Source: a virus. From it: a stretch of 10,314 nt of DNA. Below are positions 1 through 9,000 of the stretch, in pieces. Where the stretch lies: the UHGV virus genome UHGV-0113241, one strand, 5' to 3'. A program made the position numbers. How positions within the stretch are numbered: position 1 is the stretch's first letter; each line of letters opens with the position of its first letter.

Positions 1-3000
1 TGACGGGTAAAAAGTGGATAAAATAATTTTACCCACCGGATTTTTACCCATGCTCACCGTTAAGCAGATTGAAGCAGCAAAGCCGAAAGAAAAACCATAC
101 CGCCTTCTCGATGGTAATGGCCTGTACCTTTATGTCCCTGTATCAGGGAAAAAGGTATGGCAGCTTCGCTACAAGATTGACGGTAAGGAGAAAATCCTGA
201 CCGTCGGAAAATATCCGCTTATGACTTTGCAGGAGGCAAGGGATAAAGCATGGACTGCGAGGAAAGACATCTCGGTTGGCATCGATCCGGTAAAGGCGAA
301 AAAGGCTTCGTCTAACAACAATTCCTTTAGTGCGATTTACAAGGAATGGTACGATCACAAGAAGCAAGTCTGGTCAGTAGGCTATGCAACTGAACTTGCA
401 AAAATGTTTGATGACGACATTTTACCCATCATCGGCGGCCTTGAAATTCAGGATATTGAGCCGATGCAACTGCTGGAAGTAATCCGCAGATTTGAAGATC
501 GCGGTGCAATGGAGCGAGCCAACAAAGCCCGCAGAAGATGCGGCGAGGTTTTCCGTTACGCTATTGTCACCGGAAGGGCTAAATATAACCCGGCACCTGA
601 CCTTGCAGACGCCATGAAAGGATACCGCAAGAAGAACTTCCCGTTTCTTCCAGCAGACCAGATCCCTGCATTCAACAAAGCACTGGCAACATTTTCAGGA
701 AGCATCGTATCGCTCATTGCGACCAAAGTTTTACGCTACACAGCCCTAAGAACGAAAGAGCTTCGTTCCATGCAATGGAAGAACGTCGATTTTGAAAACA
801 GGATTATCACCATCGACGCCAGTGTGATGAAGGGCCGCAAGATTCATGTTGTTCCTATGTCAGACCAGGTGGTTGAACTTCTCACTACGCTAAGCTCCAT
901 CACTAAACCAGTATCAGAGTTTGTTTTTGCCGGGCGCAACGATAAGAAGAAGCCAATCTGCGAGAACGCGGTATTGCTTGTGATCAAACAAATCGGCTAT
1001 GAGGGTCTGGAAAGCGGTCACGGATTCAGGCATGAATTCAGCACGATTATGAACGAGAACGAATGGCCTGCTGATGCTATTGAAATGCAACTGGCACATG
1101 CCAACGGCGGATCTGTGCGCGGTATTTACAACCATGCGCAGTATCTCGATAAGCGCAGAGAAATGATGCAGTGGTGGGCGGACTGGCTTGATGAGAAGTT
1201 TAAAGTTAGTTCATGAAAAATGACATACCAGTTTATGGTATAAGTAGATCACGTGTATACTGTCAAGGTTCTCATTAACAATCACACAAAATAATCGGAA
1301 AATACAATGAAACACGTTACTTCTCTTGATGGAGCTAGAGGAATTGCCGTCATAATGGTCATGTTATTTCATTCTAATATACCTTGGGCATCTTTGGGGT
1401 GGGCTGGTGTTCCATTATTCTTTTGCCTTTCGGGGTTCCTGATCACATCAATTCTTGAGGAAGACAGGAAGTATAGATTTGCCGGGTATATTAAAAAGTT
1501 TCTAATAAATAGATCGTTGAGAATATTTCCTCTATTCTATCTATATCTTGCGGTTAATTTTGTAATAGTTAAATCAATGGGAGGAAGTACGGACGGTTAT
1601 TCTTGGTTTGTCACCTACTTACAAAACTATTACATTGGTAATAACATAACAACACCAGGAATACTTGGACACACATGGTCTCTAGCTATAGAAGAACAAT
1701 TCTATTGGATTTGGCCTATTGTAATATTTTTTATTCGCCCACCAAAGGAAGTATGTTTTTTTGTATTTCTTGTGATAATCTCATTAGCTTCTAGATATTT
1801 TATATTCAATATGTCTGGAGGTAATCCGTATATAACTAACGTAACTCTTATCAGTTGTGTTGATATGCTTGTCCTAGGCGCTATCTTTGCTCATATAAAG
1901 GATAGCAATAAAGCACCACAAATAGCCATGTTGACATTTATAGTTGGTTCTATTGTTACTGCATATGGCGTTATAAATATTGGGATTAATAATTTTTGGC
2001 ATCCAGAGCAGTGGGTTGGCAAGGGATTATACCTATTTACATCATTAGGGATGACATTCTCATCAATTATTTGGTTCTTATATTATTCATCAGGAAAAAT
2101 GACAGGCCAGCAACAGCCAGCAACAGCCAGCAACAGCCAGCAACAGCCAGCAACATTTTACAACTATTTATAACGACTTGTAACAAGATATTTAACTTAA
2201 AATTCCTTAGATTTACAGGAAATATAAGTTACGGCCTTTACATGTGGCACTTGCTATGTTTTTCAATAGTAAGAAAAATGTTTTCATTTGTAGGAATCAC
2301 AACTGATGGATTCACTTACATAGCTGCTTCATTTATTGTATCATATGCAGTTTCAATAGCATCATTTTACTTATTTGAGAGTTTTTTTCTTCGTTTTAAA
2401 GTAAAATCTTGCAGAGAAGGATTTATTTTAAGAAATTCAGTAAAATAAATTATATGTTCGGCATCGGTATTTTATACACTGATGCCGAAATATCATTTAT
2501 TCTATAGACATTCTGCTATTTGCAAAATCATAAGCATCTTGTGATTTAATGAATTGACAAACAAAATAGTCATTTAACCTAACTACACATCCAGATGTTG
2601 TTTTCAATGTTAACTTTACTGCGCCTGATTTTACTGCTCTCCCTACTCCAAATGTGTGTACCCATTCACCTGTAGAGGTGTATATGTTGCCAAGCTGATC
2701 TGTATCACCTGAGAACGATCCTGTAACATCACCTGATACAAGTTTAATGCTACATCCCCAAACAACATGGTAAAACTTAGCTATGTTAGCTGGTGAAATA
2801 TTCAATGATATCGTGTAACCGGCTGGAATGTTTACCTGTGCACATTTATCCGATAACGATCCGTCAGACACGCTTGAGCCATCAACGGTGCCAGTTCCTA
2901 AAAACTGCCATGGACCATCACCTGTAAATGACTCTGAATTAAGAATTTCGCCAGTTGGCAACCTTTTAACCCTTCCTTTTATTGAAGTGCCTCTTAAAGA

Positions 3001-6000: not shown

Positions 6001-9000
6001 GCCCCCTGAGCAATTCGACCAGCAAGTGTTGGTGCCTGTACCGCCGCTCTCTCAACGCCAGAAGGAGTGAGGTAAGGCAATGCCTCAGCAAATACCCTGC
6101 CCTCTGTAGTTTGTGGAGTCAGCGCGCCTTGCTGAAGGCCAAAGTCCTGCTCTAATCCCTGCGTTGTTACTCGTGGCGCTGGTTGATATGTACCATCGCC
6201 AATGCCGAGTTTACCGCCAGCCCAAGCCGCCGCACTTGTTACAGCATCGGCAACTGATGCAGGTATGTTTGCCACGTTCACGCCAGCCTGCACCAGTCCG
6301 CGACCAGTCTCTCTTACTGCTTCGCCAAGATCAGACATAAATCCACTTTGCTGTGGTTGTTGCTGTGCTAATGGTTGTTGTGTCTCCACTGGCTGCACAG
6401 ATGGCAATGGATAGGCAGCATAGAAAGCTTGCTTAGCCTGCTCTGCATTTTCTCCGGCTTGCGGGGCCACGACTTCATTGAAGTATTGCTCCTGAGCCTG
6501 CGCTTTTTGTTCTGGTGCTAACGCCTGATACTGTGGAGAGGCGATAACATCTTTCCATGCTTTAGCCATTAATCACCCCATAGTGAAGAAAAGTTACTGC
6601 TGGCTGCTGGCTGTGATACCTGTGCAGGTTGAGATTGCTTCCGCTGAGATTTACCAACATTAACGTTATATTGTTGGTTGTAATTGTTGGTGTATTCCTG
6701 AATTTCACGAATCGACTGCTGCATAGCCTCCGGGCTTGAATAGTCAACCTGCGGCATCCCCTGAAAATACATCTTCGCTTCTGCAACGGTGTTAATACCA
6801 CTGGCACCCATGTCCCTTGCTGCCGCCACGCCCTGATTCTGCATTCTTCCCTGAATACGTTGTGCTGAGTTATATAACTGGCGCTGCTCTTTTCCTGTTA
6901 ATCGGCTGCGAACATCAGCACCAATTGCCGGGTTACCTGCGCCGCCGGTCATTCCTGTCATGAAATCGAGAGCAGAAGCATCTGCATTTGAGATCGCGTC
7001 GATATCCTTCTTCATGGCATAGTTTTGTGCTGATGCAGACGATGTTGCAGGCGCTGCGATTGAACTGGCAGGAACGCGAACCATATTCCCCTCGTTGTCG
7101 ATGCCTTCGTAGAACGCATTAGCCCCAGCGCCGTGAAGTTTCCCGCCAACCGTTACAGTTCTGCCATCTGATAACTGAACTGTACGCTCATCATTCCCAG
7201 CGGTTCCTCTTGTTGACGCTCGCTGTATTGCCAAATCCTGCCCGCGTCGCGCAGTAGAAGCAGATAAATCCTGACCGCGCATCGTGATGTTCTGACCTCG
7301 CGCTGTTAGCGCCTCGCCAGCCTGATTGCTGCGGATTGTCTCTGCAAGTTTTCCGCGATCAATCTCACGCCCAACGATTCTGTCTTGCGCCTGAAAATAT
7401 TGCTCTGGACCAAGTGCAGCCATTCCAAGGTGATCAACAAACTCTGTGAAACCTTGTGGATTTTGCTGATACATTTTCGCCACATCCAGAGGGTCTACTC
7501 CGGCACGAGTAAGCTCAGATGAGTTGTTCTGCAACCATGACATCATGGCTTCTGGAGATGAAGCTGCCAGTCTGGCACTTGCTGCCAGTGTGCCGACAGT
7601 GGAACGCTGGTCTTCATCGACAAATTTCATGCCGTTTCTTACAGCGTCAAACTGCTCAGGATACTGTGATGCCAGTTTTCGCATTGCATCGCGGTCACCA
7701 GATGTATATGCATCAGCATAAGCCTGCTGAAACTCTTGCTGTCGCTTCTGCTGATCCATCTGCTTATACATATCCATGACAGATGAAATGCCCTGCAAAG
7801 CCTGCAAGCCAACGTTATTACGTCCTGAACGCTCCATCTCGTTATTCTGTCGAATGTATGCAAGCGTGGCGTCTGCATCACTTGCTCTTGGAGCGTTGGA
7901 GTTCATGCCGCCTAACCCGGCAAGAAGCGCGCCTGAATTACCAGCCTGTTGCCATGTAGCCAAGAGACACCTCCATTAAAAAAGTGAACCAAGAAGACCG
8001 ACGCCAGCACCAATTGCTGTACCCCAACCAGGCATGATTGCAGTACCTGCAGCTGCACCTGCTGCCGCTCCACCCAAGGCGCTCTGAAATCCTGATGGTT
8101 TATTCGCATTAGCCGCAGATGCTGCCGCCTGCTGTTGATACAATTGGCTGACGTTGTTGGCATAGTTCTGCCCGGCGTTTGCCTGACCTGTAAGAGCGCC
8201 AAGGCCGATATTTGCCAGATTGTTGTAGTTGTTCATCTGACCTGACAGCCAGTTTTGACCGAGTGTAGGTGCGATTGCTGCTAACTGGTTTCCTGTTGCT
8301 GTAGAGCCTAATCCACCCGTTGCCTCTGCTGCTGCCAGACTCTGGTAACGCGCCTGCCCTGCAAGGTCTTTGTACTGCTGGGAGTTGTAATACTGGTTAA
8401 GCGCCTGACCTTGCCCCTGAAGAGAGGAAAGATTTTGCAACTGTGATACGTACTGCTGAGCGAGTGGCGTGAACGGTGCAAGGTTCTGCATATTCGTCTG
8501 CCACATTTCACGTTGCAGTTCGATGCCCTTTTCAGTTGCGCGTGCCTGGGCTTTAGATCCGGAGTCGCTGCCTCCTTTCATATACCCATTCATGGGAAGC
8601 AATTTATTCTTGAAGCTTTCGCTAAGTACTAACATTTAATAGCTCCTCATATTTCGAACGAGGTAATTGATAGAGGGTGATTCCAACCGGTTTCCCGTTA
8701 CTCATGTACGCATCATCAAGGTGACCAACACGGGTAATGATTAACAGCCCATGACAGGCAGACGATGATGCAGATAACCAGAGCGGAGATAGTTGATAGC
8801 CTTTTGTTTGTCGTTCTGGCTTAGTTCGTGCTTACCACAGAATGCAGCCATTCCGAATCCGGCTTGTGATTGCGCCATCCCCATAGCAGCCATCACATCA
8901 GTACCGGAAAGAGAGTCAGAAGCCGTAGCCCGTGGTGAGTCGCTCATCATCGGGCTTTTTGGCGAATGAAATTTAGCTACGCTTTCGAGTCTCATCGTCT

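Follow-up and report, generated by a model that had tools for sequence, protein, structure and literature searches.

Sf6 and the Sf6-like or P22-like (Lederbergvirus) prophages that occupy argW, among them vB_EcoP-683R2, HF4s, and Kapi1, share a gene order in which the integrase gene (int) is followed by an O-antigen-modification moron, the tailspike gene, and the genes for gp16, gp20, and gp7. The same order occurs in UHGV-0113241, a viral DNA of 10,314 nucleotides (the window, by which we mean the whole stretch that was analyzed). Its closest phages are Sf6-like Lederbergviruses, and Sf6-like prophages align with it at 90-91% identity over up to 54% of its length. CPS-53/KpLE1 of E. coli K-12 is also a P22-like remnant anchored by intS at argW, and is far more decayed than the window element, which stands at the outset of the same course. 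The argW integration site is likewise common to the window element and Kapi1 (PMC8787464). Unlike the Sf6-like prophages, however, the window element lacks everything from gp14 through the C-terminal two-thirds of the antiterminator gene Q, save for a 59-bp fragment of Rz, and its longer contigs also lack the immunity/replication region. An earlier reading of this DNA (the original prediction) had noticed that the tailspike gene and three ejection-protein genes (2497-8635) are intact although the capsid genes on which they depend appeared to be deleted, and had reasoned that either the deletion was very recent or the genes were kept for a host-level function. Following a comparison with seven annotated genome loci and a dozen contigs, we consider it very probable that the window is the integrase-proximal end of a P22/Sf6-like argW prophage that was disabled very recently, and that its leftover genes are passive.

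Two published systems frame this result. Incomplete prophages tend to lose lysis, portal, and terminase genes, while integrase and tail-fiber genes are relatively enriched (Khan et al., 2020; PMC7744054). Like them, the window retains an integrase and a receptor-binding tail gene, and it is an early example of that pattern. In Salmonella BTP1, whose tailspike and acyltransferase (gtrC) genes are convergent, the tailspike shortens the O-antigen of the lysogen unless GtrC protects it by acetylation, and a gtrC mutant regains its O-antigen length once the tailspike gene is deleted (Kintz et al., 2015; PMC4413052). The window has the same convergent acyltransferase/tailspike pair next to the integrase of a P22-like prophage. 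However, BTP1 is a complete, active prophage, reported to have high spontaneous induction (PMC5322425), whereas the window element lacks the late promoter region and most of Q. In addition, gtrC of BTP1 is not phase-variable, whereas the acyltransferase of the window is predicted to be switched by a 10-bp repeat.

The age of the deletion could be bounded against an intact relative. A contig found through the exact gp20 protein (L025) carries, upstream of gp7, full-length portal, scaffold, coat, gp4, gp10, HNH, gp26, and gp14 genes; its terminase gene runs past the contig end, and downstream lies a tailspike of identical length (636 amino acids). Over window 2128-8736, L025 shows 3 mismatches in 6,609 bp, two in the repeat of the acyltransferase gene and one at codon 322 of the tailspike. 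The deletion itself is carried by six contigs (L006-L009, L026, and L027, from at least five samples), all recovered solely through exact-protein look-ups. Pairwise, these carriers differ by 0-1 single-nucleotide polymorphism (SNP) over the stretch aligned to the window, with the four open reading frames (ORFs) free of gaps, and L007 and L008 differ by 2 additional SNPs in flanking sequence. Carriers L006 and L026 are identical to L025 across window ~2156-8736 and share its base at codon 322, which leaves zero substitutions over ~6.6 kb between deleted and intact copies. At that codon (window 3444), the window reads TCA (Ser), whereas L006, L026, L025, and every listed relative read CCA (Pro). 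P322S is derived, nonsynonymous, and the sole polymorphism in the four ORFs among the six carriers.

All four ORFs lie on the minus strand and, as had been predicted, are intact: the 636-residue tailspike (2497-4407), the gp16-type ejection (DNA transfer) protein of 665 residues (4572-6569), the gp20-type ejection protein of 464 residues with a TTG start (6569-7963), and the gp7-type ejection protein of 219 residues (7976-8635) have the same lengths as in the structurally complete prophages L002, L004, and L025. Plausible ribosome-binding sites and a coupled start are also present: every start has a Shine-Dalgarno-like sequence ahead of it, and the stop codon of gp20 shares TAATG with the start codon of gp16. 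We made a rough estimate of our own from a Poisson upper bound of ~3 substitutions per 6.6 kb, on the assumption that a few percent of substitutions are nonsense and that indels are modest in number relative to point changes. Across the 5.95 kb of coding sequence, far fewer than one ORF-disrupting event would then be expected, so that four intact ORFs are the outcome expected under neutrality. Of the two alternatives offered earlier, the lack of any substitution in ~6.6 kb relative to the structurally intact L025 strongly supports a very recent deletion; the four genes would be intact because there has been essentially no mutational time since the deletions, and not because they are used.

The loss of capsid genes is real, and more complex than had been supposed, with two junctions in the window and a third just outside it. 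Junctions and lost content were defined against intact comparators (L002, L003, and L019). In blastn alignments, window 4069-8736 runs collinear with L002 as far as the final 115 bp of gp14 (DUF2824), a 3' remnant at 8622-8736 on the minus strand that also aligns with L025. At this point, a GGTA microhomology (8733-8736) joins gp14 to an orphan fragment of the Rz/spanin gene, 59 bp from its 5' part (8733-8791, minus strand), with ~11.8 kb missing relative to L002; the fragment is 100% identical to L002 37499-37557 and 98% identical to L003 2004-2062. At the second junction, an AGATA microhomology (8787-8791) joins Rz to Q, with ~1.65 kb missing relative to phage ECP1. From 8787 onward, the window contains the first ~70 codons of Q fused out of context, giving a chimeric Q' ORF of 84 residues (8741-8995, minus strand) that matches Pfam Antiterm on residues 23-71 only and PHROG 127 at positions 1-72 of 253. 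Since the Rz fragment lies between both junctions, the head and lysis genes were lost in two separate microhomology deletions and not in one. Between them, these deletions removed both terminase subunits, portal, scaffold, coat, gp4, gp10, gp26, most of gp14 and of Rz, endolysin, holin, the Q-holin interval, and the rest of Q. The Q-holin interval is where the late promoter lies in lambdoid phages; in phage ECP1, PR', holin, and endolysin lie in the stretch from Q down to Rz.

The third junction lies ~1.3 kb beyond window position 10314, where a fragment of N without its N-terminal ~27 codons is joined to the C-terminal ~70 codons of ninB (L006 about 3975-4437), with ~5.3 kb missing relative to phage vB_EcoP-683R2. 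In carriers L006 and L026, the start of N is thus missing, as are cI, cro, cII, and the replication genes, and PL and PR were presumably lost along with them; the remnant would thus be without a repressor and early promoters. Taken as a mechanism, three deletions by illegitimate recombination, those inside the window at microhomologies of 4-5 bp, would have disabled the prophage. The gp14-to-Rz event would account for the head, packaging, and tail-accessory genes, the Rz-to-Q event for the bulk of Q together with holin, endolysin, and the late promoter region, and the N-to-ninB event for the start of N, the immunity genes (cI, cro, and cII), presumably PL and PR, and the replication genes, and the tailspike and three ejection-protein genes would remain as passive leftovers.

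A rival possibility is that the junctions are chimeric joins made in metagenome assembly. Its exact sequence was found solely in short-read metagenome, Logan, and draft assemblies and in 0 of 5,426 complete E. coli genomes; a 351-bp query spanning the junctions was likewise not covered by any complete E. coli genome, and exact 30-31-nt patterns for both junctions had no match in GTDB representative genomes, JGI metagenome contigs, or IMG/VR. However, the same junctions recur, gap-free, across at least five samples in assemblies that are independent and were produced by different assemblers, one of them the NCBI isolate assembly GCA_050550605.1, and overlaps of just 4-5 bp are far too short to mislead an assembler. 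An artefact is therefore extremely improbable.

With the region of PR', most of Q, and presumably also PL and PR deleted, every phage promoter region able to drive the four genes would be gone. A scan of the coding strand for consensus sigma-70 promoters found no site upstream of gp7, in the 164-bp spacer before the tailspike gene, or downstream of the N'/ninB' junction, and counts from the promoter/terminator scan were at or below shuffled expectation. Since the regions that hold the known phage promoters are lost, the tailspike and ejection-protein genes are probably transcriptionally silent or transcribed only by read-through. A rival idea is that the retained genes serve related phages. 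They could complement, in trans, a P22-like phage that is co-resident or superinfecting, or be a reservoir from which the tailspike and, with it, host range is exchanged by recombination. Recombination is physically plausible, given 97-98% identity over gp16-gp7 in L020-L024 and ~100% in L025, and carrier contigs often end in the nin region, possibly because other lambdoid prophages of the same genome have repeats in common with the element. However, trans complementation, which had been suggested earlier, requires late transcription, and the stretch from Q codon ~70 to Rz, with the PR' interval, is deleted. A recombination reservoir would benefit the phage and not the host, leaving no selection for retention by the host, and these genes have been lost in other lineages. 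We consider a role of this kind to be very unlikely as the cause of retention; marker rescue by related phages through recombination is plausible from the identities seen, but as a by-product and not the reason that the genes are still present. The element was also considered as a satellite, mobilizable in the manner of a phage-inducible chromosomal island (PICI), and this was rejected: it has no packaging genes left, and since the pac site of P22 lies within the small-terminase gene, one of the genes lost in the deletions, specific packaging of the remnant would not be possible.

In other E. coli lineages, decay has gone further. The complete integrase-acyltransferase-tailspike module is rare, occurring in 1 of 5,426 complete E. 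coli genomes. In strain 47-1826 (L004), it is part of an intact prophage. In strain LF4-1 (L005), the tailspike gene is split by IS630 and cut by IS1 (both insertion sequences, IS), and the ejection genes are absent. In two further groups (8 and 10 contigs), of which the four longest loci were aligned (L013 and L016-L018), just the 3' 1,271 bp of the tailspike gene is left, with homology stopping at window 3767 and no ejection genes remaining. Integrase and acyltransferase persist through all of these stages, whereas the structural genes do not. The original prediction had named decay of related loci as evidence against its functional reading, and such decay was found, through deletions and IS insertions rather than the scattered frameshifts it had envisaged. 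Other defective argW prophages are broken elsewhere, by different internal deletions in L001 and by IS2 in the coat gene in L012, and most of the close relatives sampled are complete. In the stub groups, the shortened tailspike gene adjoins P4-like satellite genes (L013 6034-7325; L016 5899-9699), which comprise two ORFs with Psu domains and, in L016-L018, a Toprim/DUF927 primase; the host dsd genes follow. The argW locus of these lineages thus seems to hold a satellite remnant beside a P22-like remnant.

A check proposed with the original prediction was whether the deletion is shared and the ORFs are under purifying selection. The deletion is indeed shared by the six carriers, but the single post-deletion substitution, which is nonsynonymous, is too little for a ratio of nonsynonymous to synonymous substitution rates (dN/dS). 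Values of dN/dS against L002 and L004 were 0.04-0.25 and reflect the history of the phage before the deletion; comparisons with L001, L002, and L004 were therefore rejected as a test of post-deletion selection. In the 3' part of the tailspike gene, lineage-specific nonsynonymous and synonymous changes numbered 3 and 2, respectively, for the window and 4 and 2 for the stub lineage, which is too few to be of use.

The proposal that the tailspike, with or without the ejection proteins, is kept to edit or trim the host O-antigen together with the adjacent acyltransferase draws on a real precedent in Salmonella, BTP1, with its convergent pair of genes (PMC4413052). The acyltransferase of the window, by contrast, is OFF. 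It appears to be phase-variable, with at least one clone-mate (L027) in the ON state, and the enrichment of tail-fiber genes in incomplete prophages (PMC7744054) would also fit. It is conceivable that a tailspike expressed by read-through shortens the O-antigen whenever the repeat sets the acyltransferase OFF, forming a stochastic length/acetylation switch like that of BTP1 that has outlived its phage. However, zero substitutions relative to L025 left no time for selection to act, the sole change after the deletions is nonsynonymous at a conserved proline, and the late promoter region and most of Q are deleted, with no substitute promoter found in consensus scans. The retained genes were not conserved across independent remnant lineages, as domesticated genes should be; LF4-1, L013, and L016-L018 have lost the 5' half of the tailspike gene or had it disrupted, along with all of the ejection genes, while int and acyltransferase persist. 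Editing of the O-antigen would also leave the retention of three ejection proteins unexplained. A host-level function is therefore unsupported, and we regard O-antigen editing as very improbable and the BTP1-like switch as slightly more so.

Several points weigh against passive retention after a recent accident. Three separate deletions without a single point substitution is a striking ratio; it might reflect selection that favored rapid inactivation, but not selection to retain these genes. L025 is a contig of 18.8 kb, and its intactness covers the genes on that contig and not a whole phage. The defective prophage L001 also retains gp7, gp20, gp16, and tailspike despite partial loss of its head module, and this, together with the tail-fiber enrichment in incomplete prophages (PMC7744054), may point weakly to a general bias toward retention. 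Finally, the promoter scans were consensus-only, and a weak promoter or read-through would escape them. Even so, a P22-like prophage disabled too recently for its leftover genes to decay is very probably the correct account, and further decay by deletion or IS insertion would be expected, as has already taken place in other lineages with the same module.

The remaining features of the window agree with its assignment as a derivative of a P22-like/Sf6-like prophage and not a functional member of that group. An intS-type tyrosine integrase gene (14-1216, plus strand; Pfam Phage_integrase and Arm-DNA-bind_3, with intS annotation in the comparators) stands at one end, and in the longer contigs L007 and L008, both matching the window at 100% identity, it is adjoined by argW, a tRNA-Arg(CCT) gene, and by host yfdC. 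The gp7, gp20, and gp16 genes are followed by a tailspike with a P22 head-binding domain (PF25688, PF16928, and PF09008, with PF26808 for gp16), whereas of the P22-type packaging/head module, comprising terminase, portal, scaffold, gp5 coat, gp4, gp10, gp26, and gp14, the window has nothing except the 115 bp of gp14. Genes for lytic growth are thus lost while the prophage borders are kept, as in a defective (cryptic) prophage. The surviving nin genes (8992-10264, minus strand), identified by Pfam and PHROG matches, are ninH, rusA, ybcO/HNH, an 89-residue ORF, and ninF; the nin-region genes are 98.1% identical to phage ECP1, and NinH and NinF were also called in L006 and L026. A scan of the window at Rfam gathering thresholds gave zero matches.

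Among the four retained products, gp7 matches Pfam P22_gp7 (1.7e-91) and is present as the exact protein on 547 contigs; gp20 matches Pfam Inj_translocase (2.7e-72), and its exact protein is also encoded by the structurally complete prophages L020-L025; gp16 matches PHROG 770 "DNA transfer protein" (3e-236), with PF26808 (Phage_P22_gp16) assigned on an identical product. The tailspike, which is 98.3% identical in amino acids to that of L004, consists of the P22 Head_binding domain (2.3e-67; residues 1-~120) and a receptor-binding domain of low GC content. A sequence search of PDB with the tailspike gave matches confined to the head-binding domain (the N-terminal domains of Sf6 gp14 and P22 gp9), and no Pfam family was found at E<=10 for the receptor domain from residue 130. 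GC content is 32-40% over window 1251-3750, which spans the acyltransferase gene and the region encoding the receptor-binding domain, compared with ~50% in the ejection and nin genes; such a composition would fit a serotype-specific module that is exchanged horizontally. When the spacer of 164 bp that separates gp16 from the tailspike gene (4408-4571, minus strand) was aligned among Sf6-like argW prophages, its length was preserved and columns averaged 97% identity, even between prophages with unrelated receptor domains in their tailspikes. Short inverted repeats lie in the spacer close to the ribosome-binding site of the tailspike gene, with no Rfam match and no consensus promoter there.

The acetyltransferase gene beside the tailspike had been taken for a working gene, whereas in the window it is frame-shifted OFF. 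It encodes an AT3 membrane acyltransferase (Acyl_transf_3; 1307-2173, plus strand; Pfam and PHROG O-acetyltransferase matches) truncated to 288 amino acids, compared with 373-393 for full-length alleles, and alignment with the 393-residue, in-frame allele of L004 shows that the full-length frame would extend to about 2448. Within the gene, Tandem Repeats Finder detected a perfect tandem repeat (2106-2155, plus strand) of the 10-bp unit GCCAGCAACA, present in 5.0 copies with 100% matches; since the unit is not a multiple of three, copy number sets the frame. The repeat tract measures 54 nt in the window, L007, and L008 (OFF), 34 nt in L027 (373 amino acids, ON), and 94 nt in L004 (393 amino acids, ON). 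L027 has the same three deletions and 0 SNPs relative to the window over 10,314 bp, but 3 repeat units in place of 5, which restores the frame. Similarly, L013 and L016 share their deletion endpoint yet have tracts of 53 and 33 nt. Across the cluster, the length classes are 383/393 amino acids (ON) and 278/288/298 amino acids (two OFF frames), and ON and OFF contigs are about equal in number among the 15 cluster members listed. A non-triplet intragenic repeat whose copy number differs among near-identical genomes and shifts the frame is a hallmark of a simple-sequence-repeat contingency locus, and the gene accordingly looks like one: a slipped-strand, phase-variable acyltransferase of O-antigen or lipopolysaccharide (LPS), judged from sequence comparison, carried on a prophage.

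The nearest parallel is neuO of CUS-3, a "mobile contingency locus" (Deszo et al., 2005; PMC3046976), which is also an acetyltransferase gene on a P22-like E. coli prophage, with translation switched by the copy number of a non-triplet intragenic repeat. However, NeuO is a soluble, left-handed beta-helix enzyme that acts on the K1 capsule, and its heptanucleotide repeat lies two nucleotides after the start codon, whereas the window encodes an AT3 membrane acyltransferase whose repeat is decanucleotide and sits ~265 codons inside the gene. A phase-variable AT3 gene, oafA of Haemophilus influenzae, is cited in a review, with reference to tetranucleotide-repeat LPS genes (PMC9558356). A non-exhaustive search of the literature found no description of the E. 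coli acyltransferase repeat.

The wider significance of the retained genes is small. The element is an ordinary, freshly grounded P22-like prophage whose intactness needs no special explanation, and its value lies in showing, cleanly and with a well-bounded date, how the grounding of a prophage begins. It also illustrates that ORFs left intact in a crippled prophage should not be taken to indicate domestication before an intact relative has been used to bound the age of the lesion. The repeat-switched acyltransferase is more worthy of follow-up. It is the moron, and not the structural genes, that is the part of the element persisting through every stage of decay. If the predicted switch is real, this decanucleotide-repeat ON/OFF control of an AT3 acyltransferase would be the second mobile contingency locus in E. 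coli, after neuO of CUS-3.

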